From a virus (Duplodnaviria > Caudoviricetes): a stretch of 58,254 nucleotides of DNA. The notes beneath the pieces are model-generated. The model was given only the letters and a program-made list of their open reading frames with translations. It ran no database searches and was not told where the DNA came from. Positions 7,246-58,254 of this stretch are shown piece after piece. Both the position numbers and the translations under genes were made by a program. The stretch is taken from the IMG/VR virus record IMGVR_UViG_3300020235_001162, positions 1 to 58,254 of that record; one strand, 5' to 3'. Each line of letters begins with the position of its first letter. The first letter of the stretch is position 1.

Positions 7246-7260
7246 GTCGCCATTGGCGAC
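7246..7260. repeat. 15-bp palindrome GTCGCCAWTGGCGAC, copy 1 (intergenic, abutting an RBS)
   Basis: exact match read from sequence. Confidence 0.95.
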
Positions 7261-7264
7261 TGGG

Positions 7265-7477
7265 TCATCCGCTCAGGGGTGAGTTGCCGCCGGTCTTGTT
7301 GGCCGTAGCCTTTGGGCCTGACTTGGCCGATCCCTTCGGCAGGCCGGGGTGGTCACCACTGCCCGGCAAGTTTGTCGGCGATGTTGGTGTGCGGGCGTTG
7401 GCCTTGAGGGCTGTGCCGGGCACTCCGAGGCCGGATCCTGAGGGTACGTTGGACATGTGAGTGCTGGGTGTTCCCAT
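7265..7477 (-). CDS. small Gly/Pro/Ser-rich basic protein
   Basis: AGGAG RBS before MGTPSTH; 70 aa. Confidence 0.7.
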   Translation of the reverse strand: MGTPSTHMSNVPSGSGLGVPGTALKANARTPTSPTNLPGSGDHPGLPKGSAKSGPKATANKTGGNSPLSG

Positions 7478-7481
7478 GGTG

Positions 7482-9068
7482 TCAACTCCTGACTCGTTCA
7501 AAGGTGTTCTTGCTGTTCTTGACTCGATTGAATGTGTCGGCTCGATTGATAATACCCCGATGTGGGCCTCTCGTGTTCTTGGCGTAAAGGTGGGGTTCTT
7601 CGATGAAGTGTAGGACGAGATCGGCCAGAGCGTCAATGCGATCGTTCGGCTTCGGTAGGCTGTCCCACCGCAGCTTCAGGAGCTGCCTGCGGTTCTCGGT
7701 GTCGCGTAGCACCTCAGGGTTGGCCGAGATCATCCTGTTGTTCACAGGCTGCTCCAGAGCCTCTGGGATCCTCACAACCTTGCGTCTGGTGGCCTTGTAC
7801 TCGGTGACCACGCACTTCACGTCTGCCCGCCGGATGTACCTTCGGCAGCTTGAGGATGCCGACTTGAGGTTGCCTTCCAGATAGACGTTGCGTACCCCGA
7901 ACTCCTCGGCGATCCCGAAGACCTTCCTCCATGTGGACTCGCCCAAGCTCTCTTTGGTGACCTGTCCGTCCTCGTCGAGGAAGTCGAAGGCCTCGCCCCA
8001 GAGCCCGCCCATGTGGCAGACGTGGATCTTGCCGTCCAGTAGACCGCCGATCGCGATCCCCCACTCACAGGCAGCCTCTGAGTCTGCCGGGTCCACGAAC
8101 ATCACCGGGTTGTTCGGCATCTTGAACGCAACCTCGATCTCCTTCAGTCGCAGCACAGGGCCAGCCTCGGCCATGTACTCGGTGTTGATCATGTACTGAA
8201 GCTCCCACCGGCTGGTGGGCATCGACCGCTTCACCTCGGCGACGTGCATGGGCCGCTTGTGCAGGTGGTGGTAGTACTTCTTCTCCATCATGTCCGGCCA
8301 CGTCCACTCGCCTGTGTACGGATCGATCACAGGGATCTTGAGGAACCGGGCGTCGATCAGTGGGTGGCCCTCGGCGTCGTCTTCGAAGTCCTCAGGGCGT
8401 GGCAGGTACGCCGTCATCGGACAGTGCGGCTGGCCGAGTACGAGAAGCTGGGTAGTCTCCGGGCCGGGGACGTGTTTCATCCCGAAGTGCCGGGCCTGCC
8501 GGTCAGGGGAGTGGAGGATGTCGCCAGCCTCGCCGAACGCCGCGAGGATCCGCGACCTCATCGACTCAGGCTCCACCTCTGGCTCAGGATCGTCGAAGAT
8601 GTACAGGTCGGCTCGCGAGCCCGTCATCGAGGTCTTGATCCCGGCAGCCACAATCGACAGGCCCTGCTCAGGCTGGATGCCTTGGAGGTTGAACTCAAAG
8701 TCCGAGGCCGAGTGAGCTGGACGCAGCTCCTCCATGAGAGGGTCCAGCTTCAACTCTTCCTTGATCGCTGCGACGAACCGCTTCGCCATCCCGTCGTTGG
8801 ACGAGTGGACGATCACCTGCATGTTGGGGTTGCGGAGCCACCGCCACTTCACATACTGCCGGGCCGCCAGCCACGTCTTGGCCGCGAGCCGGAATCCAAG
8901 GATGCAGGCCGCCCGCGTGTGCCACTCAGGGCGGGTGCCCTCAATGAAGTCCGCCATCGCGTAGTGAAACTCTGGTGGCGTGTGTGCCCGGACCTTGGCA
9001 CCGTGAAAGACCATCCGTCGAAGGCTCTCAGCGACCCACTGCTTGTAGTCCTTCTGCTCAGCGATCAT
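7482..9068 (-). CDS. terL: terminase large subunit (T7 gp19-like)
   Basis: Walker A variant GFRLAAKT, TGSRADLYIFDDPE Walker B, ELQYMIN, nuclease FVDPA and NDRIDALA; located after the tail fibre as in T7. Confidence 0.92.
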   Translation of the reverse strand: MIAEQKDYKQWVAESLRRMVFHGAKVRAHTPPEFHYAMADFIEGTRPEWHTRAACILGFRLAAKTWLAARQYVKWRWLRNPNMQVIVHSSNDGMAKRFVAAIKEELKLDPLMEELRPAHSASDFEFNLQGIQPEQGLSIVAAGIKTSMTGSRADLYIFDDPEPEVEPESMRSRILAAFGEAGDILHSPDRQARHFGMKHVPGPETTQLLVLGQPHCPMTAYLPRPEDFEDDAEGHPLIDARFLKIPVIDPYTGEWTWPDMMEKKYYHHLHKRPMHVAEVKRSMPTSRWELQYMINTEYMAEAGPVLRLKEIEVAFKMPNNPVMFVDPADSEAACEWGIAIGGLLDGKIHVCHMGGLWGEAFDFLDEDGQVTKESLGESTWRKVFGIAEEFGVRNVYLEGNLKSASSSCRRYIRRADVKCVVTEYKATRRKVVRIPEALEQPVNNRMISANPEVLRDTENRRQLLKLRWDSLPKPNDRIDALADLVLHFIEEPHLYAKNTRGPHRGIINRADTFNRVKNSKNTFERVRS

Positions 9069-9436
9069 GGGCCGATGTCGTCGTCCTTGGTCTTGCCGGA
9101 AATGGGCGTTTGCGATTCGGTCTGCTTGAGGATCGTGTTCAAGGTAACGGTCTTGCCTGCATCTCCGATCTTCTCGATGATCTCACCGGGCAGGAACGGA
9201 GTTCCAAAGCCACCGCCGGGACCGTTGACGATGAAGTCGATGAACATCCTGTCAGGGTCCGTGATGTAGCCTGCACAGACGCCAGTGGCTCTGGACGTAA
9301 GACCGATGACCCGTGTATCTCTTTCGGGGCCACGGCCAGCCGATGCGGTGTAGTCGAAGGAGAGCGACACGCTGCCCTCGGATGTCGGGTACCTGCTCTT
9401 GGTGACTATATGTGTTCCGCTGGGTCCGGTAGCCAT
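9065..9436 (-). CDS. hypothetical protein
   Basis: 123 aa, coupled on both sides. Confidence 0.7.
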   Translation of the reverse strand: MATGPSGTHIVTKSRYPTSEGSVSLSFDYTASAGRGPERDTRVIGLTSRATGVCAGYITDPDRMFIDFIVNGPGGGFGTPFLPGEIIEKIGDAGKTVTLNTILKQTESQTPISGKTKDDDIGP

Positions 9437-10714: not shown

Positions 10715-10729
10715 GTCGCCAATGGCGAC
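10715..10729. repeat. 15-bp palindrome copy 2 (gene junction)
   Basis: exact match. Confidence 0.95.
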
Positions 10730-17200: not shown

Positions 17201-20200
17201 GCTTGGCCTTGTCGCTCGCCATCTCACGCAGCTCAGTCACTATCTGATGCTTCTTGGATGGATCGAACCGACCGCTCTTCGGGTCGGCGGCGAACTCGAT
17301 GATCTCCAGAACATTCTGTTCGATGACAGTCCGGAACCTGCGGAGCCGGGGCTCCGCGTCCATCATTGCTTGTCGGATGACACTGAGGGTTTCGTCTCGG
17401 TCGAGTCGGATTCGTTCTGGGACGAGGTCGGCGACGGCGATGCTGGCTTCGGTGAGGGCTCCGTAGATTTCTCTGGCCTTGCGGACTCGGACGACGGGAG
17501 GCTTTTCTCCGTCTTCATTTGCTGCGGTTGCAGGCCCCTCGACATTGAACTGGACGGATCCTCGGTCGATGGCCTGTCGCCAGCGGGCTTGGATCTCGGC
17601 GATCTTCGGCCTAATGACAGTATCAATGATCCGTTGAATATCGGGTCGTCCCGCGAGGCCAATCTCACGCTGGTAGTTCTCGCCATCAAGGTTCTCCGAG
17701 TAGTCGTTGGTCTGACTGCCGTGGTCGGTGGCGAAGAGCTTCAGCTCCGCATTCACTTCTTCTGGCAGTACCCTCTCCAACAGCTTCTTGGCCCGATTCT
17801 GGAAGTCGCCATTGGCGACTCCCTTCGGCCCGGCATCACCGAAGTACACCAAGTGTAGGCCATTCTCGGCTGGGTGCAGAACGACATCACCACCGAACTC
17901 ACGCTCGATCTCTTCGGTCAGTGTGTCATGCTCGCCGAACGTCATCTCCCTGCCGAACTCGTAGGAGATGCCGTTGGAGTCCTTCTTCGTGCCCTTCCAG
18001 AAGGGTCGGTACCAGTGGACCTCCGGTGAGTGCAGCACCTGACCGACCGCTGCGGCGTACACGTCGAGCAGCTTCCTGACATCCATGCTGACGCGGGCGT
18101 CGGTCAGGACGCTGTCGGCGTAGTCACGCAGGGTCTGCCAGACCTGTTGGGTTGTCTGACTTCCACGCTCTTCAGCTCGGATGCCGGACCTCAGGATGAC
18201 CTTCCAGTCCTTGAGCGTGTCCCTGTTGATCATCGGGACCGTCTCGTCCACGAAGAAGGCGTCCTCGCCGATGGACAGGAGGGCGTCCCGCAGATCACTG
18301 ATGGTGGCCCCGGCCTTGATCCGATCCAGCACCGCGTTGGTTCGCGACCGCATGGCCCTGCGGCGGTCCTGCCGCTTGGCGGCCAGCTCGGATCCGACGA
18401 TGTCGAAGTTCTGGCGGACGAGGCTTCGGAACAGTCCGTTGCCGCTGACTCCGGAGCCACGCTTCAGGAGCCCCAGCTCACGGGCGATGATGTCGAAGCC
18501 ATCCTCGTCGTAGAAGACAGCCATGACCTCTGCCGTGTAGGCCTGCTGTACCAGATGTGACGCTGTCAGAAGCTCAGGCAGGATGCCGGTGCTTTCGTGC
18601 GGGATGGCGTTGAAGTCAACGTGGCCGGTCTGCCACTCGCTGATGTTGGAGAAGTCCACAGACGTGGTCAGGGGGTCACTGGGGATCGGCAGCATGCCGT
18701 CCTTGAGCAGGGCCGCCAGCTCCTTCTTCTGCTTTTTGCCGGGCCGTATCGCCTTCTGCGTCACCCAGATGGCGGACTGTACCTGCTGAGTCTCCCACAG
18801 GGGATCGCCGTCAGCGACATCCTTGTTCAAGTCGGCCATGACATCCTTCATGAGGTCTTCGGCCCACTTGTACTGCGGGGTGGTCGGGGCTTCGGTGGGG
18901 TAGCCCATGCCACGCATGATGTGAATGTCGATCGTGGAGATGAATTGGTTGGGGTTGCCCAGACCTTCCGGGTCGATTTCCCGCATCAGGTTCTTGTAGA
19001 AGCTGCCGGTCTTGCGACCCTCCCACATGGTGCCTTCGGCCAGCAGGGCATCTGCCGTGCGGCCCTGCCACCCGTACTTGCCGATCCACCACTCACGGCC
19101 AGACTCGGTGAACCCATGGATTTCCATGTCGGCCTGCCACCTGAGCCATGCCAGAGATGCGTGCTGCCAGTTGGACTGTAGCGGGTTGGTCGCCGACATG
19201 ATCGAGATGAGCTGAACGAACTGTTCGGCGGCGACTTTGTCGCCTCCGAACTGGTTGAGGATGTGCCGCCCGGAGCCCTCGTACCAGAAGCGTCCCACCA
19301 CTCCGATCCTCGCCATCTCGATCAGCCGCTTCTTGAGCTTCGTCCGGTCCCTGCCGTTCTGGATATTCGGGGGTGCGAACCGGAACTTATTCGGCCTGTT
19401 CGCACGGGCGAGCTTGGCGAGCTGGCTCTTGATGCCCTTGGCCCGGCCACGCACCTTGCCGAGTGGCTCGCCGCTGGCGGCCAGATCCTTCTCGCCTCGC
19501 TGCTCAAACCACATGCGGGCTTCCGCGAGGGTGCTGACCTTGCCCATCAACAGGGGGACCGCCAGAGCCTGAGCTTGGACCTCCAGATCCATGTCTCTCA
19601 GGGCTGCCTTGATGACTCTTGGATTGATAAGGTTGGCCGCTGCCTTACGCTCTCGCAGAAGGATGTCGTCGGCGTTGATGGGACGCTGCTGGCCGGTGAA
19701 CGGGTCGGTGATCTCCTCGACCTCGTTGCCCAACTCATCTACGACGTTGAGCTGGGCTCCGACATCTGGTTCATCCGGTCCACGATCTGCTTCGGTGACG
19801 ACTGGCGGGGAAAGATCATTAGCCGCACGGGAGACGGCTGCTTCTTCTTTGGACTGGACTCGGATTTCCCGTCCTTTGTCGAGGTGGAAGATGGCTTCTT
19901 GGGATCCTGCGATTGCGGCACCTGTCGCACTCCTTTCGTTGCTGTGGACCTCGACGATGTCGAGGTACCACGATCCATTGTCGAACCACACCCCCAAGCG
20001 GGTCGCCGGGTTGCCACTCAGTATATCCTCGTTGGCGTCGAGGAATCCCTTGATCTGGGCCTCTGTGACCTTGCCGTTCACCTGCTCCGACTTCGTGATC
20101 GCCACCCCTCGCTCCGGGAACGGGCTCACGGCGTAGCCCGTCACCTCGATCGTGTCGCTGAAGGGCTCGTAGGTGATCCCTCCGTTGTCGATGACATGCT

Positions 20201-23200: not shown

Positions 23201-24113
23201 CGAAGGCGACCGCATCCGCCGCTCCCGGCGTGCCGCCATTCGCGATGATGGCCGCCCGGTAGTCGGTGACGCCGCTGCCGAAGGCTTGGATCCCCATGTA
23301 GCCCAACATGGACTTCGGGCCGATCCTTCCAAGGAGCCGTGTGCCGCCGACGATCTTGCTGGCGACACCCAAGTACGACGGGAGCAGCATCTGCCCGATC
23401 TCGCCTGCGGTCACCCATCCACTGCCTTCCTGTGCGAGACGACCTTCGATCGATATGGGGAAGAGCAGCCCCCCCAGTGCGAACGAAGGCACCGCCATGT
23501 CGAACTCGCCCTCTTGGAAGTCGGTCCTCAGGTTGTCCGCGTAGTCGCGGTACATCTGGGCTGCGTCCGAGAACCCACCAAGATCCAAGAGCCCCGCCAT
23601 TCCCTGAGCGATCATCTCTTGACTGCCGATGAAGCCGCTGACGACTCCTGTCGTGACCTTCGTTATCGCCGAGGCATCCCGCATACGGTCGGAGATGGCG
23701 TCGTCGATGCTTGGGCTGAGCCTCAGGATCTCTGACCGCTCGTCGCGGGTCAGTGGCTCGCCAGCGAACTTCTTGGTGAGAAGATCCTCAGTGCGTCGTC
23801 GGGAGGCTCTTTCCTCATCCCTCATCATGAGGTAGTCGAAGCCCGCCGACATCTTCCCCCCGGCAGCATCGTCCGTAGGCGACTCTTCCGCCTGACGCAC
23901 GATCTCCTCTGGTTCCGGAGTCTTGTCGCCATTGGCGACTAGCTGCGAATCCTCACCTGCGGTTAGGCGGTCCTTCGCCTGAGTCAGTTTCTCTGGGTTG
24001 ATCCGGAAGGTCTGCGTCTCGCCGATCTGTCTCTGGCCGTTCCGGATCGGATCAGTGTGGTGACGCTTGAGCTTCTGGTCGTCGGTCAGATTGATATCTT
24101 CAAGGAAGGCCAT
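14259..24113 (-). CDS. giant internal virion (ejected) polyvalent protein, T7 gp16 position
   Basis: 3284 aa; two HExxH zincin motifs (HEMVH, HEVVH), an ART-like segment and an HhH-glycosylase-like segment; helical, membrane-like C-terminus. Confidence 0.85.
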   Translation of the reverse strand: MAFLEDINLTDDQKLKRHHTDPIRNGQRQIGETQTFRINPEKLTQAKDRLTAGEDSQLVANGDKTPEPEEIVRQAEESPTDDAAGGKMSAGFDYLMMRDEERASRRRTEDLLTKKFAGEPLTRDERSEILRLSPSIDDAISDRMRDASAITKVTTGVVSGFIGSQEMIAQGMAGLLDLGGFSDAAQMYRDYADNLRTDFQEGEFDMAVPSFALGGLLFPISIEGRLAQEGSGWVTAGEIGQMLLPSYLGVASKIVGGTRLLGRIGPKSMLGYMGIQAFGSGVTDYRAAIIANGGTPGAADAVAFGVGYAIAEILFERLGMKAVTDMAERSLFNLGDAYLGGKMLRVMSIVNQNLISGGTEMTEEMATQLAQNLMGRFGFYAGAIDPDRPLLAGVPEAGLLGLIGGQALHIAGIGVGAAHRSGLKSNLEKMQSKQMRQQAKDGRQPSQPKFRTEAARAGANFIGPRQVGEGLTLPSLEEAQAEGDIEQVIVVMEDMIQTGKDGERDLTDEEISRLTGQRRALKDAMEAQRLADDGDQQDVVREPLPVDQAPPSTPIRVKSTTREREGFMEDINDLAVSEGVENVNAELVEEADQELEVAAEAIFSGSGTEVIFWRNKAHVEGTQHITGVVDRQRFGRRIFINVDADNTDMIKRTMSHEMVHILEETAEYVEFVQRIQARDPGGLKAAGNSYTDSLRLFGADADSFLATTRGQREAVARYIEVRALERGFWDELVGRKPTLVRRFIQTVDRVMASLGNVKAGIRIDEIQTMRDLAAAALSQRGSQGVSEDVDAESQLNVRIDGSHNGRIANTKIITPYRPMAMGWHELATITGLGPTQFSNWQADVLPFLNEDSKHGAYARWWMSSSGHMDMSEISMLDPLPGSFEEEVVNLTEGRLGVEVVWADVGTQDAMQAIMDYPSPRIVLPNNLTLPDQDTIFTEVWAHEVVHTLQEKKFYQTFLDNVIGFDGALLDHMGTLYWANLKRLKMGEFTPEQLDEVERWKQTEEGHDEMIAQYIGIIAGDESAAPTWWNQIMSGELVGAEIMAGLAGKYSEAYGHSGERAEIHLKRMDRVQSLLKNAVDAHEMTLNEFTPILGGEASTQFNVRDTITDAEQATITGAGRRNDQGRAIRTTRFVHLSRENITAEGILLKFAGTGAIGRERQRIIRGGQLKLDQAAVNLYTAGRRGEFVVLSKSKFLNIVEGKFNLLSKLDSQWKSIINEVTERYGSFDYGGMMQVAKEKGYEGYVETDKSQPTKGFVTLWRNIEPSEIVAAEKLTPQRMRELISGEPLIETPAMFTRPGATNAVLQHVIDNGGITYEPFSDTIEVTGYAVSPFPERGVAITKSEQVNGKVTEAQIKGFLDANEDILSGNPATRLGVWFDNGSWYLDIVEVHSNERSATGAAIAGSQEAIFHLDKGREIRVQSKEEAAVSRAANDLSPPVVTEADRGPDEPDVGAQLNVVDELGNEVEEITDPFTGQQRPINADDILLRERKAAANLINPRVIKAALRDMDLEVQAQALAVPLLMGKVSTLAEARMWFEQRGEKDLAASGEPLGKVRGRAKGIKSQLAKLARANRPNKFRFAPPNIQNGRDRTKLKKRLIEMARIGVVGRFWYEGSGRHILNQFGGDKVAAEQFVQLISIMSATNPLQSNWQHASLAWLRWQADMEIHGFTESGREWWIGKYGWQGRTADALLAEGTMWEGRKTGSFYKNLMREIDPEGLGNPNQFISTIDIHIMRGMGYPTEAPTTPQYKWAEDLMKDVMADLNKDVADGDPLWETQQVQSAIWVTQKAIRPGKKQKKELAALLKDGMLPIPSDPLTTSVDFSNISEWQTGHVDFNAIPHESTGILPELLTASHLVQQAYTAEVMAVFYDEDGFDIIARELGLLKRGSGVSGNGLFRSLVRQNFDIVGSELAAKRQDRRRAMRSRTNAVLDRIKAGATISDLRDALLSIGEDAFFVDETVPMINRDTLKDWKVILRSGIRAEERGSQTTQQVWQTLRDYADSVLTDARVSMDVRKLLDVYAAAVGQVLHSPEVHWYRPFWKGTKKDSNGISYEFGREMTFGEHDTLTEEIEREFGGDVVLHPAENGLHLVYFGDAGPKGVANGDFQNRAKKLLERVLPEEVNAELKLFATDHGSQTNDYSENLDGENYQREIGLAGRPDIQRIIDTVIRPKIAEIQARWRQAIDRGSVQFNVEGPATAANEDGEKPPVVRVRKAREIYGALTEASIAVADLVPERIRLDRDETLSVIRQAMMDAEPRLRRFRTVIEQNVLEIIEFAADPKSGRFDPSKKHQIVTELREMASDKAKRANSDRRKRIREASRKVTISPEVDPSELIRMASSEDIIRREKAKNTRDAERKEFKRKANAIIEKAALAQREVRRRRNELLDTIIQILPAKFRPADLIRKINQIKTDKQLKVALGDVLVALNKVELRDAKANLLKVVNSVKLSSLPAVYKQAMEERIGNINFQKLTQKTRDRLQTIQNMISEDPAMEETFSKRERESLVKLSNTEVDDMTAAEMNLLSEQVKVVSKNAREFGKTFKRGKKVRIELLEAAVVGELTNEREAREPQPSGQARVRQAMNIASLPFKMETNLKPDALAALQSGSEGMFWETFFKDLVDSQRSWLRNHHIAVDVMEGAIDDAGIRPGDLATMSRVFAGSYGLFTAPIEAIRRRRAGKPGDLRSGETRAAVVIDEDGLEGILLESNRRLVMTKAERMHLVAMLMDMDNYDLIVNSGAPVTLKQGQAGDNFRLTRNDVLKIRASMTTAESLIVARTVEHMNTVMKAKLAAWSITSKGRDITKGDIHVSRHRVRSGDAFAEPTLEQYVDATLNSIGLQKDRGTDIKSPVEIRDWFVEYNNISWGTFALTEMADTHATARKLLQRESVQRALVAAGGSTGYWERMLTNLAREATGQGDNNGPFSSVIGSVINNLTKALLAVNPRVVMYQPASMLVANSEIEMKYLVIGGKSIGKSLTNNAKDIDNEIRTHSPTLRARFDSTALSVMNEFTGGGRILKGQKTSISDRMMAGIQWGDRIAIRTIWMASTAKVDAEFAQLTGDERMRKIAEIAEGVVSRTQPVWGALHTSGLGAQAKRIPVIKLVTMFMAQRNQNINMAVRGLMRYNRDPSQKLKAAKDIAMVAVGQTMFITAIAALWEWALGGFDDDDGDEVAAWLGGRSIDVFVGNIYFGDFYSFVTQVMLGFEQPFEPDFSPLSGSIEQLGRAGMTLRNSGGPNDPKFWKGLEGLTTSGFSMTPFGAWVAGYRMISRGWKNRIAEESSSSQKKPKRASAL
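17805..17819. repeat. 15-bp palindrome copy 3 (inside CDS, encodes VANGD)
   Basis: exact match; flanks extend it to a 17-bp palindrome. Confidence 0.95.
23925..23939. repeat. 15-bp palindrome copy 4 (inside CDS, VANGD)
   Basis: exact match. Confidence 0.95.
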
Positions 24114-31741: not shown

Positions 31742-31756
31742 GTCGCCATTGGCGAC
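31742..31756. repeat. 15-bp palindrome copy 5 (5' UTR of the capsid gene)
   Basis: exact match. Confidence 0.95.
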
Positions 31757-35748: not shown

Positions 35749-36373
35749 CGAACTCTCCATGGCAGGCAGTCGCCATTGGCGACTTGTCCTCGTTCCAGTT
35801 CAGCCACACGAAGCCACGCTTCAGGGCCAGCGGTGACCACGATTTTATCATGGCTATCTCTCGGAGGTGGCCTTTGTTCAGGCTGTTGATCTTCTTCTGG
35901 TACACCTTTGTCTCATAGGCGTAGGGGTTCTTCGGGTCGGACCTGAGGTCCATGCCGCAGAAGATCAGGCAGTTGAAGTGCAGGAATGCCCACTGGATAC
36001 AGAACGTCATCGACCTGTTGAACGACCGCAGCGGGCCGTGCCCGTCGAAGTACTCCCGCTTCTTCTTGGTCTTCCGATCGATCGACTTCAGAGATGAGAT
36101 GTGGACATACTCCACGTTGGGGTACTTGCTCCAGAAGGCGTTGAGGGTGTCTGGCACCACCTTCCTGACCGTCTCGCACCTCGCCGTCTCGTATGCCTTC
36201 TCTCCACCATGGTGGTGGTTGATGTTGTCCGCCGTCACCCAGTAGTTGGGCCGGGGGATCACCCGCACCGTCGTAGACACGGCGGCGACAGGGATGTCCA
36301 TCACAGCTATCTCGTTCAGCCGAAGGGCTAGGCTGGGTCCGCTTCCTGCAATGATGAGAGGCTTGATGTCCAT
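35678..36373 (-). CDS. MptE/Maf-like (DUF115-type) putative glycosyltransferase
   Basis: IIAGSGPSL, YWVTAD, LIFCGMDL motifs. Confidence 0.7.
   Translation of the reverse strand: MDIKPLIIAGSGPSLALRLNEIAVMDIPVAAVSTTVRVIPRPNYWVTADNINHHHGGEKAYETARCETVRKVVPDTLNAFWSKYPNVEYVHISSLKSIDRKTKKKREYFDGHGPLRSFNRSMTFCIQWAFLHFNCLIFCGMDLRSDPKNPYAYETKVYQKKINSLNKGHLREIAMIKSWSPLALKRGFVWLNWNEDKSPMATACHGEFDGRTPLDRLFEAALGNPTGVESD
35769..35783. repeat. 15-bp palindrome copy 6 (inside CDS, SPMAT)
   Basis: exact match, 17-bp palindrome with flanks. Confidence 0.95.
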
Positions 36374-38925: not shown

Positions 38926-39545
38926 CCTCGGTCGATCCCCTTCTGTGTCGTGCTTGCAAGGTGGTGGAAGACTACCGGATCGCCCTTGCATCTCCCCTTG
39001 ATCGCACACCAAGACTGCGGCAGCCAGACCGTGGACGGGCGGATGTCACACCACGCCTGCTGGAGTGTCCACTGGTCCCACTGCCCATCGTCCAACCGGC
39101 AGAGGTGAGCCCACTTATACAGCAGGTCCATTCCACCCAGCGTGTTGTTGATGAAGATGGTCCCGCTATTGAACCATTTGGGTGGGTCGGGCCAGTCGTC
39201 GGGAAGGTTGACCACCCGCCCGCAGGCCTTCCTCTTCCGCTCACCTCCGAAGGAGTAGACACCGAAGTCCACCTCGATGTCCCGGAGCAGGTCAGGCCGC
39301 TTCTTCAACTCAGCGTCGGCGTCGATCCAGAGGATGGGCCGTGAGAGGATCCGCATGCAGTTCAGCATGAACGGACCCTTGATGGCACAGTTGCTCACCC
39401 ACCGGCCAGTGTCCTTCAGCTCAACAGACATGCAGGGCACCTTGAGTGCCGCACATGACTCCCTCAGCTTGGCCGCGTACTTCGGATACGGGTCTTGAGA
39501 GGTGTAGTAGTTGACGACCGTGACCGGCCTTGGTCCTGTCGCCAT
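38922..39545 (-). CDS. GT-A nucleotide-diphospho-sugar transferase (paralog)
   Basis: WVSNCAIKG, ILWIDADA, NSGTIF, WDQWTLQ, LPQSWC, HHLAS. Confidence 0.8.
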   Translation of the reverse strand: MATGPRPVTVVNYYTSQDPYPKYAAKLRESCAALKVPCMSVELKDTGRWVSNCAIKGPFMLNCMRILSRPILWIDADAELKKRPDLLRDIEVDFGVYSFGGERKRKACGRVVNLPDDWPDPPKWFNSGTIFINNTLGGMDLLYKWAHLCRLDDGQWDQWTLQQAWCDIRPSTVWLPQSWCAIKGRCKGDPVVFHHLASTTQKGIDRG

Positions 39546-39552
39546 TGGCGAC
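39538..39552. repeat. 15-bp palindrome copy 7 (follows a stop codon and contains the next ATG)
   Basis: TGA-GTCGCCA-ATG-GCGAC reading TGAGTCGCCAATGGCGAC on the - strand. Confidence 0.95.
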
Positions 39553-40831: not shown

Positions 40832-41224
40832 TCAACCTGAAACGGTCGGACCACTACGAGTGGACGAGGGCGTCGTGTCCCGCCCATCAGACCTGAGGTC
40901 GTCTATGTCGCTCATGATACTGTCGAGTGACTGCCGCCACCATTTGCCGTCGCTGAGGCAATGCTCGTCGTATCTCGCCTTCAGCTCGTTCCAGTTCTTC
41001 CACAGAATATTGTGCTGCTCTGTCAGTTCACTTACCTCTCTTTGCAGCTTGGAAGAGTGCTTGGCGTATCCGCTCACACGCACCGTCAAACTCTGAACTG
41101 TCTCCTGTAGATCCGCGAGCTGGTCGGAGACGGACTTCAAGGACGGGGGTGTCGCCATTGGCGACTGTGAGGGGGCCTGAGTCGGTGAGCTTGATGCTGT
41201 GTCCGTTGAGCTTGAGTCCGACAT
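40832..41224 (-). CDS. coiled-coil hypothetical protein
   Basis: GAAAGG RBS; heptads LADLQETVQSL...; overlaps the alternative ORF 41028..41261. Confidence 0.55.
   Translation of the reverse strand: MSDSSSTDTASSSPTQAPSQSPMATPPSLKSVSDQLADLQETVQSLTVRVSGYAKHSSKLQREVSELTEQHNILWKNWNELKARYDEHCLSDGKWWRQSLDSIMSDIDDLRSDGRDTTPSSTRSGPTVSG
41151..41165. repeat. 15-bp palindrome copy 8 (inside CDS)
   Basis: exact match. Confidence 0.95.
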
Positions 41225-44362: not shown

Positions 44363-45211
44363 TTAGCTCTTCTTCGGTGCCTTGGCGTCAGCCTTCTTGC
44401 CAACGGGCGACTGCTTCCAGCCGGACTCGTTGACCCAGCCGCGTGGGTTCAGGCCGGTGTCCTTGTCGCCACAGGCCATGCACTTCTTCACGCCCTGCTT
44501 GCCCTTGCAGTAGGGGCACACGGCGAAGGGGCGGCTGAACTTGATCGCGGCGAACATGTTCATCCGGTCCTGCTCCAGCGAGGTGAGCTGGTTGCCGATG
44601 TAGAAGGCGGCGTTGCCCTCGACCATCTCTTCGACCAGTGTCTTGAGCTGGCTGAGGACTCGCATGCCCTCGTCGAAGGTAGCCTTGGAGGTGGCGAAGA
44701 TCCCAAGCAGATGGTCGGGGATCGCAATCCCAACGCTGTCCTTCTCGACTGAGGCTGCCGGGCGGGCGACCTCAGGTGCGGACACGCGGATGGCCTCTCG
44801 GACATCAGAGGCCTGACGGGGACGCTCAGCCTTCGCGGCGACGGCGTCGGCAGCGGCCATGACTTCCTGACGCTGATCGGCGGGAACCTTCTTGAGGTCA
44901 CGCAGGTGTGACTCAGGAGTCACGCCGATCTCGATGTTCAGGGCACGTTCGTGCTGCCCGGCGGCGAGCTGGCGGAAGGCGGTGGACCGGTGGCCCGGCA
45001 GAACCTTCTTGGACCAGCCTTCCCAGTTGGTGTGGCCCAAGACCTTCCAGCCGCGACCGTCGCTGAAGTCAACGAGCAGTCGGCGGAGGGTGCCTTGCTC
45101 GCCTTCAACCTTCACGCACTGGTCAGCGATCCGCTCGCTCAGACGCTTCGCTTTGACGAGCGACATGTCATTCTTGGCGAGGTCTACAACTTCGGTCTTC
45201 GTAGCAGTCAT
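44363..45211 (-). CDS. DNA-binding protein (ParB/KorB-like HTH region, DUF3102-like) with C-terminal zinc finger
   Basis: GWKVLGHTNWEGW...RSTAFRQL...PESHLRDL; CPYC...CMAC...GW. Confidence 0.55.
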   Translation of the reverse strand: MTATKTEVVDLAKNDMSLVKAKRLSERIADQCVKVEGEQGTLRRLLVDFSDGRGWKVLGHTNWEGWSKKVLPGHRSTAFRQLAAGQHERALNIEIGVTPESHLRDLKKVPADQRQEVMAAADAVAAKAERPRQASDVREAIRVSAPEVARPAASVEKDSVGIAIPDHLLGIFATSKATFDEGMRVLSQLKTLVEEMVEGNAAFYIGNQLTSLEQDRMNMFAAIKFSRPFAVCPYCKGKQGVKKCMACGDKDTGLNPRGWVNESGWKQSPVGKKADAKAPKKS

Positions 45212-45315: not shown

Positions 45316-46332
45316 TCACGATGTCTGGCGTGACCGGAGTGCCTCCAGCCACTCGTCGAGGATATCTTCGGGCAGTCCGAAGATGTTCTTGATGCTCGGA
45401 CGGGAGTGCTTGCGGGCAAGTGCCGCCAGCGTCTGAGCCTCGGCTGCGACAGCCGCACCGTTATCCGTGTGCTGCTCGTCGAGCAGGTGCCGGATGGCGA
45501 TGATCTTCTGGCCGACAGCCTCGTCCACCTCAGTCTCCAGCCCGGTGCGGGAGGTGAAGTCCGGGTCGTCGCCAGCCTCCAGACCCAGCACCCTCATGAG
45601 GGCGTACTTGTCTGCGTAGGTGCTGGCCTTGCCCGGCCCCTTGTCGTAGCCGTCGAACTTCCAGCTCCACCCGGTGGAGGCGACCTCCACGTCGATGAAG
45701 TCAGCGGCGTCATCGACGCACTGGAACCGGAAGGTCCATGTGTACTCGGCCCACAGGGCCGGGCCGTGGCTGGTGTCCACGACCTGACACTCATGCCGCT
45801 TACAGTTCAGCGGGTACCAGAGGACGCGGGCCTTCTGGAACAGGGGACGAACGGCCCTCACTAGCTCAGGGTGAGCGACTGCGGAGTCGTAGGCTGCGTC
45901 ACCAGCAGACAGGTCCACCTTCTGGATGTAGTCCCGCTGCTCCCGGATCCACCACAGCCGCTGCTGGATGGTGGCGGTCGCGTCGGGCACGTCGTTCATG
46001 AGCTGGTTGAGCATGGTGACGCCCGCCGTCGCCGAGTTGTCCGGGCTGCTGGCCTCCTTGTCGCCATTGGCGACTGCCTCATGCGACCGGAGGATGCCGG
46101 TGGCGATGTGCATGGCGGTCATGTCCCCGACACCGGGGACCATGGCGGCAAGGTGATCAGCGATCACGGCCACGTTGCCATTGAAGCGTTTGTGGAGGTT
46201 CGCCATATCAGTGGTGGACCAGCCTGCTTCGTGCAGGGCTCGAAAGCAGCGACCCTTCATGCGGTTGCAGTAGCGGTACACCCAGATGTGGAGCGGGTGT
46301 TCGTGGGTAAAGGTGGTGGCGGTGGCAGTCAT
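45316..46332 (-). CDS. erf: ERF-family ssDNA annealing protein with N-terminal HhH-like extension
   Basis: DKGPGKASTYADKYALMRVLGLEAGDDPD ERF signature. Confidence 0.85.
   Translation of the reverse strand: MTATATTFTHEHPLHIWVYRYCNRMKGRCFRALHEAGWSTTDMANLHKRFNGNVAVIADHLAAMVPGVGDMTAMHIATGILRSHEAVANGDKEASSPDNSATAGVTMLNQLMNDVPDATATIQQRLWWIREQRDYIQKVDLSAGDAAYDSAVAHPELVRAVRPLFQKARVLWYPLNCKRHECQVVDTSHGPALWAEYTWTFRFQCVDDAADFIDVEVASTGWSWKFDGYDKGPGKASTYADKYALMRVLGLEAGDDPDFTSRTGLETEVDEAVGQKIIAIRHLLDEQHTDNGAAVAAEAQTLAALARKHSRPSIKNIFGLPEDILDEWLEALRSRQTS
46060..46074. repeat. 15-bp palindrome copy 9 (inside CDS linker, VANGD)
   Basis: exact match. Confidence 0.95.
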
Positions 46333-47637: not shown

Positions 47638-48114
47638 TCAGAATTGGGGGGAGTCGTCCCCGGCCCACGGTAGGGTCACGTCCTTGAACGGGTCCGAGGA
47701 CGAGAGCCACCCCTCAGATTTGGCAGCTGTAGGGTGAGAGTGAACCCAGTTATGACACCCGCGACAGAGCGTGGCACCGTTTCCCGGATGATGACAGCCG
47801 CCCCTTCCACGCGGGGTAACGTGGTGAGCGTCCATCTGTCCGTTGTCACGGTAACACCTGAGGCATGTGCGGTGGTCACGCAGCAGGACAGCGGAACGAA
47901 ACCGAGAGGAGTCCATATCGACGGCATTGGCCTGTTTCCTTTGCTTGCCAAGCCTTCGCATGGTGGCTTGGAGGTGAGTGTTTGCGGTCTTGCGGCAGAG
48001 CGATTGTATGATGGGCTTGTCGAGGTCGGGGTGGGTGAGGTAGAGGTCGGAGTGCCGGAACTCCCAGCTACCGCCCAACGCCTCCCACTTCTTGATCGCG
48101 GGACGGATATTCAT
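47638..48114 (-). CDS. HNH endonuclease with N-terminal extension
   Basis: RDHRTCLRC...DAHHVTPRGRGG...NGATLCRGCHNWVH. Confidence 0.88.
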   Translation of the reverse strand: MNIRPAIKKWEALGGSWEFRHSDLYLTHPDLDKPIIQSLCRKTANTHLQATMRRLGKQRKQANAVDMDSSRFRSAVLLRDHRTCLRCYRDNGQMDAHHVTPRGRGGCHHPGNGATLCRGCHNWVHSHPTAAKSEGWLSSSDPFKDVTLPWAGDDSPQF

Positions 48115-48436
48115 CGTGTTCTTCCTTGACTATGCCGTACCGGAGGCACTGCTGGAGGATCTGGTAGACACGCTGTCGTGAGAGTGAACAGATCAGACCG
48201 ATCTCGGTCAGGTCAGGGTTCGGCCACTGGTCTATCAGCTCGGCAACCACCTTGACCACGCTCACCTTGGTATAGCTGGGCAGGATGACTCCGAACTCAT
48301 GGCATGCAACCTTGGCCCATGCCACCGACACCTTGTACTTGGTGGCGGCGTCAATCAGGCCCATGCCACCCTCGATGTCGGTGGCGATCTCCGCCCGGCG
48401 GGCTCGACGTTCAGGGTGAGATAGAGCCAATGACAT
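48068..48436 (-). CDS. HTH DNA-binding protein (sigma70 region 4-like)
   Basis: LIDAATKYKVSVAW and LTEIGLICSLSRQRVYQIL. Confidence 0.7.
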   Translation of the reverse strand: MSLALSHPERRARRAEIATDIEGGMGLIDAATKYKVSVAWAKVACHEFGVILPSYTKVSVVKVVAELIDQWPNPDLTEIGLICSLSRQRVYQILQQCLRYGIVKEEHDEYPSRDQEVGGVGR

Positions 48437-48803: not shown

Positions 48804-48818
48804 GTCGCCAATGGCGAC
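48804..48818. repeat. 15-bp palindrome copy 10 (between a terminator and an RBS)
   Basis: exact match. Confidence 0.95.
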
Positions 48819-50656: not shown

Positions 50657-50671
50657 GTCGCCAATGGCGAC
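50657..50671. repeat. 15-bp palindrome copy 11 (between convergent stop codons)
   Basis: exact match. Confidence 0.95.
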
Positions 50672-51720: not shown

Positions 51721-51738
51721 CGTCGGCACGGGCTACGG

Positions 51739-53824: not shown

Positions 53825-53839
53825 GTCGCCATTGGCGAC
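53825..53839. repeat. 15-bp palindrome copy 12 (directly after a stop codon)
   Basis: exact match. Confidence 0.95.
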
Positions 53840-55061: not shown

Positions 55062-55126
55062 TTGTCTGATCCTTTCGGGGTGAGTGGGTGAAAGCTCCCG
55101 CTCGGCGTCAGCCGGGCGGGCAGCGG

Positions 55127-55336: not shown

Positions 55337-55404
55337 GGGAGTAGCCTTTCGGTGAGTGAGTGGGTGAAAGCCCCCGCCCGGCGTCAACCGGGTGGGCGGC
55401 GTGG

Positions 55405-55731
55405 TCAGTCTCGCTGGTCCCACTTGGTGATGGGGGCGGGGCGGCTCTTGCGAGCTGGGCGGCGGGCACGGCGTCGGTCGTCGGCTTCGCAGATGAACTT
55501 GAACGATGCTCGCCTTTTGTCGGTCGCGGCGATGTGGGTCTGAAGTGCGGCCAGCAGCACGCGGGCCTCGGCCTCGGTGAACTCGACCATGCCGGTCTTT
55601 TCATGGATGCAGCTGGTTGAGGTCACTCGGACCCCGGACGGGTTCATGCTGTCCGCCGACATGGCGTGGATGTGGACGCTGCTGCCATCGACAGTGCGGG
55701 TCTGCTTCGGGCTGGAAACTCTGGTAAGCAT
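55405..55731 (-). CDS. early protein
   Basis: repeat-associated RBS before MLTRVSS. Confidence 0.75.
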   Translation of the reverse strand: MLTRVSSPKQTRTVDGSSVHIHAMSADSMNPSGVRVTSTSCIHEKTGMVEFTEAEARVLLAALQTHIAATDKRRASFKFICEADDRRRARRPARKSRPAPITKWDQRD

Positions 55732-55773
55732 GGGTCTGATCCTTTCGGGTGAGTGGAAAGCCAACCTGCCCGG

Positions 55774-55983
55774 TCATGGGAAGGTGGGCGACGGGAAGCT
55801 CCTCGCGGCGTTCTTCTCGTTGATGTAGACGACGTGGGCCAACTCTTCGATGGAGGCCACAGCACTCGCTGCGGACTTCCTGACTTTGGCCCCGTTGGGG
55901 ACGTTCACGGCGGCAGCCTTGATGCCCCTCAAGGCAGCCAAGATGACCTCGACGTGCCCTTGGATCACAGCTTGGTGCGACAT
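55774..55983 (-). CDS. small early protein
   Basis: GAAAGGAGGTG RBS. Confidence 0.75.
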   Translation of the reverse strand: MSHQAVIQGHVEVILAALRGIKAAAVNVPNGAKVRKSAASAVASIEELAHVVYINEKNAARSFPSPTFP

Positions 55984-56048
55984 GATGCACCTCCTTTCGG
56001 GGTGAGTGGTGAAAGCTCCCGGTCTGCTTTCGCAGGCCGGGCAGCTGG

Positions 56049-56372
56049 TCAGACGGTGACGCTCGGCGGGCTGTTGCGGTAGCCGCTCCGCTTGCAGGCG
56101 GAGGTGGTCCGGAACGGCAAGCCACTGCGGCAGCGGTCGCCACCGTGCTGGATGCGGCAGGCACCGTAATGCGTGGGCATCGGGGCGTTGTTGTGACGCC
56201 AGTTCAGGTACGCCAGAGCCTCGACGGCCTCGTCGGCAGTCTCGGTCTTCGCCACGGCGACGACCTCGGAGAGGAAGATGCGGAGGTCACGCTTCGTCCA
56301 GCTTCCGACCTCGCGGGCTGCGGGGAGGGTGATGGTCGTGCCGCCGTACCGGCCTTCTTTGAGAATGCTCAT
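56049..56372 (-). CDS. early protein
   Basis: repeat-associated RBS. Confidence 0.75.
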   Translation of the reverse strand: MSILKEGRYGGTTITLPAAREVGSWTKRDLRIFLSEVVAVAKTETADEAVEALAYLNWRHNNAPMPTHYGACRIQHGGDRCRSGLPFRTTSACKRSGYRNSPPSVTV

Positions 56373-56434
56373 TCTGATCCTTTCGGTGAGAGTGGGTGAA
56401 AGCTCCCGCCGGGCGTCAACCCGGCGGGCAGCGG

Positions 56435-56722
56435 TCAGGGGTAGCTGTAGCCATCGACGGGGGCGGGCTGGAGTCGCACGGCGGGGGTCCAGTCAGCCGG
56501 GGCGGGCAGTGCCGGGGCGTCCGGGACCAGCCCGATGACATCGGCCTGCGTGTCGGACAGGGACTTGGCGAAGGCGATGATCGTCCTCGACGCATCCCGG
56601 ATGGCGGCGAGGTGGCCGGGGCCACGCTCGCCAGCCTCGTTGGAAACGACGCTCGCCCAGTGGATGATCCCGGCGAGGTCGAAGTCCATGACGATGGCAG
56701 CGTTCTTGGTGGTGATCTTCAT
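56435..56722 (-). CDS. early protein
   Basis: repeat-associated RBS. Confidence 0.75.
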   Translation of the reverse strand: MKITTKNAAIVMDFDLAGIIHWASVVSNEAGERGPGHLAAIRDASRTIIAFAKSLSDTQADVIGLVPDAPALPAPADWTPAVRLQPAPVDGYSYP

Positions 56723-56790
56723 TGGTAGCCTTTCGGTGAGTGAGTGGGTGAAAGCTCCCCGGCCCAGTCAAGGGTCGGGGCAGCAGTTGG

Positions 56791-57087
56791 TCAGAGGGTC
56801 TTCCAGCCCCCGCCCTTGCCGGGCTCCCAGTAGTCGATGCGGGTGCATCCGGCGTTCGGCGTGCCGAAGTCGTCGAGGGGTGCGAAGGCTTCGTGGCCCG
56901 TCTCGTCCCCGATGAACTTGCCTTCGTAGCAGACGCCGCCATCGTCGTCGAGCATGCGGAAGCGGGTGCCTCCGCCACTGCCCAGCAGCAGGACATGCTC
57001 GTCGGTCGCGGCACGGGGGCCGATGACTCCGACGCTGCCGTCGTGCTTGCCTTCGATGTGATCCACGGTGATCTTGAATGCGTACAT
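56791..57087 (-). CDS. early phage protein (first ORF of the early operon)
   Basis: FRMLDDDGGVCYEG...FAPLDDFGTPNAGCTRIDY; GAAGGA RBS. Confidence 0.8.
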   Translation of the reverse strand: MYAFKITVDHIEGKHDGSVGVIGPRAATDEHVLLLGSGGGTRFRMLDDDGGVCYEGKFIGDETGHEAFAPLDDFGTPNAGCTRIDYWEPGKGGGWKTL

Positions 57088-57120
57088 TCGGTTCCTTCCA
57101 GAGAGAGTGGTGAGAGACAA

Positions 57121-57200
57121 AGGAGGCGGGGGGATTCGAACCCCCGTGCCAGCAGGTTCCGACGAGCGGCTGTCCTGCTGGGCGTTACCACAACGCCCCC
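57121..57200 (-). ncRNA. tmRNA tRNA-like-domain mimic (80 nt, no tag reading frame)
   Basis: acceptor GGGGGCG/CGCCTCC with G3-U70, stemless D-loop, 8-bp helix, CAC linker, T-arm GGGGG-TTCGAAT-CCCCC. Confidence 0.65.
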
Positions 57201-57211
57201 GTGGTGAGAAA

Positions 57212-57278
57212 TGGGTCGGGCAGGAGTCGAACCTGCTCCGGGCCGTCAACCCGGCTCCTCCCGCTGCTGCCCTCCCCC
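57212..57278 (-). ncRNA. degenerate tRNA-like element
   Basis: T-arm GCAGG-TTCGACT-CCTGC and arm CCGGG-TTGACGG-CCCGG; poor acceptor and D arms. Confidence 0.45.
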
Positions 57279-57571
57279 ATGTCGATGCCTGACGAGGGTC
57301 TGAGGATGGAGCAGTCGGGCCAACCCGATGGAAAACTGCCGCCGCCCGGTTCCCCGGACGAAGGCAGGCACTCGGACCACCCAGAAGGATGGTCCAGAAA
57401 GGTTTGAACTAGACTGGCTCTCGGCGATCTCCTTCCACCATCTGTGTCACTGGCAGTACTCCTTCACCCGCATCGAGTGGGTTGGGTGCCTCTGTGCTAC
57501 CGTCCCTGCCTTCACGGCCTGATCGTCGGCTAGGGGGAAGACGGTTCGGTGGGCGGTCGTCGTCGAGAGTC

Positions 57572-57588
57572 TTGAGTTGTCAAAGAAC
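57572..57588 (-). promoter_or_regulatory. boxA-like antitermination element in the early leader
   Basis: GTTCTTTGACAACTCAA, preceded by a small CTC-CGAA-GAG hairpin. Confidence 0.65.
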
Positions 57589-57725
57589 CGGAGTCTGAGT
57601 TGCCTCTTCGGAGCCGCGTCGTGGCCTTCCCTATGGTCTGCTCCATTCACTGGGCGGGAAGGCGGTGACTGGTCTGGCTTTCGCAGGCCCTTCGTCCGGG
57701 TGTCGGTTTCTGGGACACCGGGGGA

Positions 57726-57754
57726 AGAGTAGGCAAGAGGTAGGGCGAAGGCAA
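57726..57754 (-). promoter_or_regulatory. early-operon promoter, CTAC-N7-CTAC family
   Basis: TTGCCT-TCGCCCTACCTCTTGCC-TACTCT. Confidence 0.65.
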
Positions 57755-57936
57755 GTGATCACCACATATTTATCACACTGGTCCCGCCGACGCTGCCCGG
57801 CTAGACTGCGGGGCGACAGCGATCTTCGACATTCCTCCAGATGCCCGGAAGATGGGCAAGGCCGAAGTGCCCAGCAGTCCAGCCCCGCCGCCCGGTTCCG
57901 CATTCCCATCCGATTGGATGGCAAAGGACACACAAC

Positions 57937-58254
57937 ATGAGCTATGAAGGACAGAGCAACGCAGAGGACGTGGGGCCTCGACCTCCGGAGGACCGCAGTG
58001 ATCGGGACAGCGGGGATGGCTGGACACCTCCGCTGCCGCCACGCCCATCGAGCCTCGCAAGGACCGTCCAACAGCAGAGCCCGTCCGACCAGCCAGCCCA
58101 CCGCGACCAGTTCCATGACGACACCGCCAGTGCTGCCGACCTGCTCGCCACGAAGCCTGTCGCCAATGGCGACTCGCCGCGACCGGTCGAACACACGCAC
58201 TCCTCCCGCTTCCAGCCCGGCAACGTGGCGTGGAAGAAGGGGCAGGCAGCCCGC
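57937..58254 (+). CDS. 3'-truncated ORF, terminase small subunit-like candidate
   Basis: AAAGGA RBS; open to the window end; disordered N-terminus then SRFQPGN motif common at TerS N-termini. Confidence 0.5.
   Translation, partial: MSYEGQSNAEDVGPRPPEDRSDRDSGDGWTPPLPPRPSSLARTVQQQSPSDQPAHRDQFHDDTASAADLLATKPVANGDSPRPVEHTHSSRFQPGNVAWKKGQAAR
58159..58173. repeat. 15-bp palindrome copy 13 (inside CDS, VANGD)
   Basis: exact match. Confidence 0.95.

Follow-up and report, generated by a model that had tools for sequence, protein, structure and literature searches.

The uncultivated phage genome IMGVR_UViG_3300020235_001162 (58,254 bp, the complete IMG/VR virus record, hereafter the window) carries a 15-base palindrome, GTCGCCAWTGGCGAC, in 13 exact copies scattered over gene boundaries and protein-coding sequence alike. 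Analysis of the window and of its relatives revealed that the copies are letter-perfect, are selected at the level of the DNA and are spaced more evenly than chance. We put at about an even chance the reading that these sites form a protein-binding array with a genome-wide role.

An invariant palindrome with no degenerate copies

A recount of the window agreed with all 13 coordinates and sequences listed in an initial annotation that was made from the sequence alone (Table 1). The central base (+ strand) is A in four copies and T in nine, never G or C, and all other positions are invariant, so the statement that only the central A/T varies stands. With its flanking bases the site reads W-N15-W, at least one arm being preceded by A, which gives the AGTCGCCA arm on one side or both in 13/13 copies, again as had been described. 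Read on the coding (minus) strand, 11/13 copies are preceded by A and 4/13 are followed by T.

Besides the 13 exact copies, the window contains no copy with one or two mismatches, four with three and 39 with four, the last class lying at the background level of about 34 found in shuffles. No exact copy arose in 100 dinucleotide shuffles, in agreement with the earlier rough estimate of a chance expectation far below one, and a reversed, non-complemented control pattern gave no match. The 9-mer core GCCAWTGGC is restricted to the full 15-mer (13/13). The motif string was not found in the literature searched.

Selection on the DNA, placement and spacing of the sites

Six copies lie within coding sequence, four of them in the VANGD or VAIGD frame (copies 3, 4, 9 and 13) and two in the SPMAT frame (copies 6 and 8), consistent with the description of about half the copies lying inside genes in differing frames. 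The peptides VANGD, VAIGD and SPMAT occur six times in the set of open reading frames (ORFs), and every occurrence is spelled by the motif; the codon-usage probability of each motif-spelled string is 0.0004-0.011. The initial annotation had proposed counting exact and one-mismatch copies against a codon-preserving shuffle. With 13 exact and no one-mismatch copies in the window, a synonymous-codon shuffle that preserves every protein and leaves intergenic DNA unchanged (n=200) kept a mean of 0.085 of the six coding copies. Because all six peptides are motif-spelled and the coding copies are lost upon synonymous shuffling, selection acts on the DNA and not on the peptide, as the annotation had argued. 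In addition, the codon preceding the site ends in A in 4/4 VANGD-frame copies, compared with a third-position A of 10.9% overall, and the base before the site looks to be under selection as well.

The remaining seven copies are found at gene boundaries (copies 1, 2, 5, 7, 10, 11 and 12). Five of these fall entirely outside genes; another shares one base with a stop codon, and the last is centred on a start codon. The usual layout is a stop codon, the site and a ribosome-binding site (RBS): five of the seven sit 0-7 nt after a stop codon, and four sit 0-19 nt before an RBS or start. The copies outside genes had been placed after stop codons, beside RBSs, on a start codon and in the 5' untranslated region (UTR) of the capsid gene, and all seven are so placed. 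The gene list used here is generous and covers 93.8% of the window; by our own arithmetic, the presence of at least six of 13 copies in the 6% of non-coding sequence has a P of roughly 1e-4.

The gaps between neighbouring copies range from 1613 to 7817 bp, matching the 1.6-7.8 kb given before, with a coefficient of variation (CV) of 0.46. Among 200,000 random placements of 13 points, this regularity had P=0.003, the smallest gap of 1613 bp had P=0.005 and the largest gap of 7817 bp (ends included) had P=0.009. Thus, the spacing is more even than chance. Two copies lie within a giant ORF of 9.9 kb, where no intergenic gap exists, which fits a need for a site every few kilobases.

Conservation, gain and turnover in relatives

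One metagenome scan with a portal alignment yielded 22 loci. The identical 15-mer was present in four of them, six copies in total, on fragments with 73-79% portal identity to the window, and was absent from the other 18. Among the motif-free loci, four close relatives (L130, L131, L148 and L149) do not span any site position, and the remaining ones are distant relatives with a portal identity of 51% or less. The motif-bearing fragments belong to at least three lineages, which differ from one another by 8-14% of their nucleotides and from the window by 22-34% (66-78% identity). At five of the six orthologous positions covered, 15/15 bases are kept: copy 6 in L129, L128 and L132, copy 7 in L129 and copy 5 in L137. 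The chance that 15 bases stay unchanged at about 70% identity is about 0.005 per site by our own arithmetic. At the sixth covered position, that of copy 8, the gene itself is missing from L129.

Sites are gained as well as kept. The nozzle gene of L137 contains an additional copy that is missing from the window. At this position, 10/12 adjacent bases and four residues differ (EWKQSPLATK in L137 vs EWLQTKNHTK in the window), with conserved codons around them, and the longest gap of the window is split by the copy. A different kind of change was found at copy 7, which corresponds to position 4171 of L129. Between the window and L129, homology sets in exactly at the palindrome: the upstream sequence is unalignable, L129 lacks counterparts of the upstream genes at 39553-40436 and has about 1.8 kb of other DNA in their place, and the downstream gene is conserved. 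Therefore, the site lies exactly at a mosaic junction. Several contig joints that end a few bases from palindromes were not counted as rearrangements, because their anchors are only 21-27 nt long in diverged contigs. The assembled contigs of four DNA runs, aligned on 38255-58254, showed no pile-up of ends; contigs of this kind do not reveal nicks, molecule ends or strand.

The distant relatives G002, G003, L138, L141, L142 and L144 (portal identity 35-43%) have neither the motif nor an equivalent array. G003 (L123-L125, portal 35% identical) contains a different 16-bp near-dyad, GTCTACC-AC-GGTAGAC, at 514, 889 and 29901; two of the three copies are close together and they do not make up a genome-wide array.

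Beyond the portal loci, a 15-mer scan of IMG/VR showed no stretch with more than one site among the 80 listed of at least 116 matched. A search with the 17-mer gave 24 hits, all singletons unrelated to this phage, and a single 15-mer copy in L018 is due to chance. A single-protein scan with the portal found no relatives in IMG/VR or in the genome collection, the portal alignment query found two distant viral contigs only, and an IMG/VR scan with the family of the protein encoded at 44363-45211 found nothing. Megablast of 20 kb against isolated phages gave no match; in portal tblastn against them, none of the 25 records listed exceeded about 25% identity, and every one of the 1021 records that matched stayed below 60%. 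Judged by these sequence comparisons, isolated phages are remote relatives only. The protein atlas returned viral clusters only and no clue to the host. Contigs with near-identical sequence to the window were found in subsurface, marine and sediment metagenome runs from several studies.

Position of the sites relative to promoters

The minus strand of the early and middle region contains a conserved sigma-70-type promoter family of about 40 nt (TTGACT-17-TACAAT and variants, family D6), and a further conserved sigma-70-type promoter precedes the likely capsid gene (Table 1). None of the palindrome copies overlaps any promoter-like hexamer pair found in the window, which upholds the earlier remark that no copy sits on -35/-10 boxes. 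The distance between site and promoter is variable, from about 60 bp to more than 1.5 kb (promoters at 53013, 50302, 49795, 47619, 45276, 44313, 42544 and 31844). Within the early and middle region, palindromes appear to alternate with promoters along the strand.

Proposed role of the array and alternative explanations

The perfect dyad, the A:T centre in both orientations, the arms that do not co-vary and the lack of degenerate copies point to a two-fold-symmetric dimer on duplex DNA. The even spacing, the indifference to promoters and the cost in coding sequence point to a function of the whole chromosome, not to control of particular genes. Based on these features, we propose that the 15-mer would be a high-affinity duplex-DNA site for a symmetric dimeric DNA-binding protein, which is presumably phage-encoded, and that the array would be kept up to leave every part of the genome within about 8 kb of a site. 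Since all real genes but 150-611 lie on one strand and the few host-type promoters are never at the sites, the bound dimers would act along the DNA. They might serve as stoperator-like polar roadblocks to read-through by the host RNA polymerase; alternatively, they might be evenly spaced anchoring or loading points, not classical promoter operators. The roadblock or silencing version in particular is tentative and less likely than not.

A dimeric protein reading a genome-wide array had been suggested in the initial annotation, and with the dyad, the conservation and the spacing in its favour this part is the best-supported reading, although none of the three candidate binders reaches the threshold of a curated DNA-binding family and the only structure model was unusable. 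This is one of several observations that weigh against the proposal. The Pfam scan, which covered 70 ORF translations (ParB family cut-off E<=0.01-0.05), found no integrase, ParA (including the ParA/CbiA type), ParB/Srx or cI/Cro-type repressor and no repressor/Cro pair, and the "provirus" label of the record is the sole pointer to lysogenic silencing, because repressor and integrase genes were not found. The flanks are asymmetric, with A before 11/13 and T after 4/13 copies on the coding strand, which may reflect a constraint specific to one strand, although the bias could also be due to stop codons and purine-rich RBSs. Furthermore, a total lack of degenerate sites is unusual for operator families, and roadblocks placed 1-4 kb downstream of promoters would leave the intervening genes unsilenced.

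The flanking bias is also part of the case for a role of the transcript. Every site is transcribed on the coding strand, and the RNA could form a hairpin with a 6-bp stem and a 3-nt loop, acting in cis at gene boundaries in mRNA processing, stability, translation start or antitermination, perhaps via a hairpin-specific protein. This hairpin forms in six of the six RNAs folded (of the 13 copies; whole-fragment minimum free energy -11 to -15 kcal/mol), the boundary copies lie 0-7 nt after a stop (5/7) or 0-19 nt before an RBS or start (four), and the coding-strand flanks are A-biased on both sides. However, the stem never co-varies in 19 copies (13 in the window and six in relatives) while the loop centre varies, the reverse of most hairpin signals, which tolerate compensatory stem changes and constrain the loop. 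The centre is A or T only, in both orientations, as for a DNA dyad; two copies deep in the giant ORF have no boundary role; the in-context fold z-scores are modest (-0.8 to -2.6); and no Rfam match was found. An RNA or single-strand hairpin is unlikely to be the basis of the array, and is retained because the hairpin folds in six contexts and the coding-strand flanks are A-biased. Recombination is a further possibility, suggested by the mosaic junction at copy 7: the sites would be short identical linkers for module exchange between related phages, or targets of the phage nucleases and annealase (HNH, PDDEXK and ERF), which the phage encodes itself. In the Cluster O mycobacteriophages, recombination between copies of a dyad repeat explains insertions and deletions (PMC4351075). 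Yet only a single clear breakpoint was found here, and homology extends to either side of the other conserved copies; a linker need neither be palindromic nor be written into conserved coding sequence, and 15 bases are short for annealing, making this account improbable. The chance is similarly small that the phage merely shares a generic host repeat, a host-protein site or a restriction-modification site (HIP1-, uptake- or nucleoid-type). None of the 80 listed IMG/VR stretches (at least 116 matched) has more than one site, and the 24 17-mer hits are all single and unrelated to this phage. Distant relatives are motif-free, six of them from the same metagenome-collection scan as the motif-bearing ones, in addition to G002 and G003, and both the even spacing and the gain in a conserved gene point to selection at the level of the phage.

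Two explanations borrow a known mechanism. If the sites were loading points of a ParB/KorB-type sliding clamp dependent on cytidine triphosphate (CTP), they would serve to partition a plasmid prophage and to silence it over long distances. Formally, the sites resemble the palindromic OB sites of plasmid RK2, from distal copies of which KorB slides (PMC11790492), and the four inverted-repeat (IR) centromere sites of prophage N15 (PMC7205306), and a limited spreading range would be in keeping with a largest gap of about 8 kb. Against this stand the lack of ParB/Srx and ParA domains in the ORF translations and the family of 44363-45211, which is without a Pfam or PDB relative; we consider this mechanism very unlikely. 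The partitioning of a plasmid-like prophage, one of the functions envisaged in the initial annotation, loses its footing with the same domains and the integrase missing from the 70 translations. The site can also form a 6-bp stem and a 3-nt loop like the early promoters of phage N4 (PMC4496689), several sites lie just upstream of an RBS, and the 3284-aa giant ORF is located among ejection-protein genes, so that the sites were considered as hairpin promoters of the N4 type, for which this virion protein would contain a hidden RNA polymerase. In N4, however, three promoters are confined to the genome's leftmost 10%, the loop needs a 5'G and a 3'A, and a purine is needed at -11 (same source), whereas the present sites spread over 51 kb, with AWT as the loop and, on the template (+) strand, T as its centre in 9/13 copies. 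Sequence searches of Pfam, PHROGs and PDB gave no polymerase match for the giant ORF, and the early, middle and capsid genes are already provided with conserved sigma-70-type promoters. Membership in the N4-type family was rejected, as loop sequence, copy number and clustering all misfit, and a promoter role of this type has only the slightest probability.

Candidate binding proteins

Three phage proteins had been named as possible binders of the palindrome (Table 1). The window has two plus-strand ORFs, of which only 150-611 gives a DNA-binding signal; the other, a 50-aa ORF at 1-153, has no family hit. The winged-helix hits of 150-611 are all sub-threshold (MarR_2 with 25.5 bits, below the cut-off of 27), and its earlier label "LexA-like" is not supported. 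Its homologues are found only in this clade, with 61-88% identity and an invariant SKPT.VE recognition stretch.

The protein 44363-45211, described before as "ParB/KorB-like", has no Pfam family and no ParB domain, and matches an unnamed PHROG only. A profile of its 10-member family gave nothing meaningful against PDB, and its AlphaFold model was too poor for a fold search, with a mean predicted local distance difference test (pLDDT) score of 53.3; the resemblance to ParB/KorB is by eye only. This family is likewise restricted to the clade (48-64% identity), and the SRS..FRQL.AG.HE helix is its best conserved stretch. The third candidate, 48068-48436, has no family hit, and its assignment as a helix-turn-helix (HTH) protein goes back to HTH-like stretches seen by eye. 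Two candidate HTH families, 150-611 and 44363-45211, are thus clade-restricted with invariant recognition-helix residues. Our order of preference would be 150-611, then 44363-45211, then 48068-48436, but the computed evidence does not separate the three, and the binder may also be host-encoded.

Comparison with known systems

The closest published parallel is the 17-bp dyad repeat of the Cluster O mycobacteriophages, Corndog and its relatives (PMC4351075). That repeat, TGTTCGGNNNCCGAACA, has invariant 7-bp inverted arms and an A/T-rich centre. Corndog contains 34 copies in intergenic gaps and inside genes, mostly off promoters. The positions are mostly conserved with some loss and gain, recombination occurs at the copies, and the tested host genome lacks the repeat. 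The authors infer a dimeric DNA-binding protein and consider a transcriptional role unlikely (PMC4351075). Similar to Cluster O, the present array has many copies over the whole genome with invariant 7-bp inverted arms and a variable A/T centre, includes intergenic (seven boundary) as well as coding (six) copies with none at a promoter-like site, and largely keeps its positions (5/6), with one gain in L137. In contrast, the two repeats differ in sequence, their centres measure 1 bp (here) and 3 bp (Cluster O), and 13 copies in 58 kb compare with 34 in Corndog. Cluster O has three one-mismatch variants, whereas the window has none. The lineages are unrelated, a podophage with T7-type structural genes here and a mycobacterial siphophage there. 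The spacing result, which we did not see in that report, and the gain inside a conserved gene are what the present array adds to the Cluster O picture.

Dispersed sites are also known from other replicons. The OB operator of RK2 comprises 12 sites with a variable central base, the IR sites of N15 are dispersed over its genome, and the conserved inverted repeats of phiC31 and the C1 operators of P1 are highly conserved repressor sites at many intergenic places in temperate phages with known repressors. Like the KorB OB sites, the present sites are identical palindromes over a replicon of about 60 kb, many of them far from promoters, and in RK2 the dimer acts at a distance (PMC11790492). Unlike here, where no ParB-, ParA- or KorA-like domain was found in the 70 ORFs, KorB is a ParB-family CTPase that works with KorA. 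The stoperators of Cluster A mycobacteriophages are also repressor sites spread in many copies across a phage genome, where they are reported to stop transcription elongation besides acting as promoter operators (PMC9283540, PMC6550527). They are asymmetric, read by a monomer and orientation-dependent, whereas the present site is a perfect dyad in which only the flanking base is strand-biased; moreover, they belong to proven temperate phages with an integrase, and neither an integrase nor a cI/Cro-type family was found in the 70 ORFs. As in N15, separate inverted-repeat sites are present in a phage genome; the N15 sites IR1-4 are bound by one dimeric protein, but there are four of them compared with 13 here, and the ParB-type SopB acts with SopA, no such genes being found in the window (PMC7205306). 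By analogy, the array could work mechanistically like KorB/OB, the Cluster A stoperators or SopB/IR. It is not a member of the KorB, stoperator or SopB families, because their defining proteins were looked for and not found in the 70 ORFs.

Genome layout and other features

The record is labelled a provirus with an estimated completeness of 93%; the source contig is 63,167 bp long, and about 4.9 kb of it may fall outside the 58,254-bp window. Nearly all genes lie on the minus strand and are read from right to left. Small early genes occupy 58-49 kb and are followed by a recombination/replication block with matches in Pfam (DUF932, HNH, PDDEXK exonuclease, ERF-like annealase and SF2 helicase), a sugar- and methyl-transfer block and a T7-type structural module with portal, tail tube protein A, nozzle, a 914-aa ORF, the 3284-aa ORF and the large terminase. 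The most conserved structural gene, 30714-31631, is likely the capsid gene. The phage is an uncultivated podophage with T7-type structural genes. No RNA polymerase or DNA polymerase matched in the Pfam scan of the 70 translations, no tRNA gene (ARAGORN) or Rfam family was found in the window, and no attachment site was seen alongside the 70-ORF survey of this provirus-labelled record. By its label the phage would be temperate, but with no integrase or repressor pair among the 70 ORFs it may well be virulent.

Table 1. Palindrome copies, candidate binders, promoters and recombination genes in the window
Feature	Position	Strand	Context
Copy 1	7246..7260	.	non-coding; 4 nt after TGA stop; directly before AAGGAG and ATG of 63-aa ORF 7042-7233
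Copy 2	10715..10729	.	between TAG stop of 10729-11700 (1-base overlap) and RBS/ATG of next gene
Copy 3	17805..17819	.	within 3284-aa ORF; VANGD frame
Copy 4	23925..23939	.	within 3284-aa ORF near N-terminus; VANGD frame
Copy 5	31742..31756	.	5' UTR of likely capsid gene, downstream of promoter 31844-31815; exact in L137
Copy 6	35769..35783	.	within ORF 35678-36400; SPMAT frame; exact in L129, L128, L132
Copy 7	39538..39552	.	abuts TGA of 39553-40164; central ATG is conserved start of 38922-39545; kept in L129
Copy 8	41151..41165	.	within ORF 40832-41224; SPMAT frame; no L129 counterpart (gene lacking there)
Copy 9	46060..46074	.	within ERF-like ORF 45316-46332; VANGD frame
Copy 10	48804..48818	.	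non-coding; between terminator-like hairpin 48863-48834 and RBS/ATG of 48411-48785
Copy 11	50657..50671	.	non-coding; 7 nt after TGA of 50679-51059; before GC-rich hairpin
Copy 12	53825..53839	.	non-coding; abuts TGA of 53840-54382; precedes early intergenic hairpin/RBS cassette
Copy 13	58159..58173	.	VAIGD frame in doubtful ORF; 81 nt from right end of window
Candidate binder	150..611	+	153 aa; putative winged-helix; sub-threshold hits; clade-restricted family
Candidate binder	44363..45211	-	282 aa; SRSxxFRQLxAGxHE helix motif invariant; C-terminal CxxC..CxxC
Candidate binder	48068..48436	-	small protein; two HTH-like stretches by eye; second gene of operon starting right after copy 10
Sigma-70-type promoter	44276-44315	-	family D6
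Sigma-70-type promoter	47582-47621	-	family D6
Sigma-70-type promoter	50265-50304	-	family D6
Sigma-70-type promoter	52976-53015	-	family D6
Sigma-70-type promoter	57717-57756	-	family D6
Promoter-like site	49795	-	
Promoter-like site	45276	-	
Promoter-like site	42544	-	
Conserved sigma-70-type promoter	31844-31815		upstream of likely capsid gene; copy 5 lies between it and gene 30714-31631
HNH	47638-48114		recombination/replication block
PDDEXK exonuclease	46712-47590		recombination/replication block
ERF-like annealase	45316-46332		carries copy 9

Several further features were observed. Neither Pfam nor PDB offers a relative for the 3284-aa ORF (14259-24113, minus), which takes the position of a T7 gp16-type ejection protein; its matches to PHROGs, which are unnamed, are limited to the C-terminal 500 residues. 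Upstream of the portal, the block 35678-39545 (minus) contains MptE-like, FkbM-methyltransferase and nucleotide-sugar-transferase-like genes and is kept in part even in distant relatives. It may act in glycosylation of the virion or the DNA; methyl- and glycosyl-transferase genes are also found in Cluster O mycobacteriophages (PMC4351075).

In the likely capsid 5' UTR, a tandem of two GGACAACCGG units (31718-31740, minus) follows directly after copy 5 and is kept in L137 (about 2425-2450). As a dispersed motif, GGACAACCGG was rejected, with 11 matches at no more than one mismatch vs 6.5 expected. Between the small early genes at 53764-56784 (minus), an intergenic cassette occurs in 7-9 copies, consisting of a GC-rich hairpin, then CTTTCACCCACTCACC..CGAAAGGATCA, which includes the RBS, and then the start codon (families D1, D2 and D4); from their sequence, these cassettes look like terminator or processing hairpins with a common 5' leader. 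Two tRNA-like T-arm sequences, of the types GGTTCGAATCC and GGTTCGACTCC, are located at 57127-57146 and about 57215-57240 (minus), about 100 nt apart and with acceptor-like 3' ends, upstream of ORF 56791-57086. ARAGORN and Rfam gave no gene at either sequence; the pair may be what remains of tRNAs, the core of an attachment site or a tRNA-like RNA.

Implications

Scattered invariant dyad repeats in phages are already known from Cluster O, and the present case comes from an unrelated, uncultivated podophage lineage. Any mechanism has to account for sites that are letter-perfect across lineages differing at about one base in four, for a spacing more even than chance with no gap above about 8 kb, and for the creation of a site that changed four amino acids of a conserved structural protein. 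A more far-reaching and rather unlikely version of our proposal is a docking system that spans the whole genome under a constraint on spacing, in a podophage that would probably be virulent and in which no ParB, repressor or integrase was found among 70 ORFs; a new type of sequence-specific dimer would be bound at least every 8 kb or so. If this were true, the docking dimer might meter the host-polymerase-driven entry and read-through of a 58-kb genome transcribed from one strand, or might organise or mark the chromosome, and new sites would be written into essential genes when a gap grows too long. The dyad repeats of Cluster O would then be explained too, as one instance of a general phage strategy. 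The array could point to a widespread means by which phages organise or police the genome as a whole instead of individual promoters.

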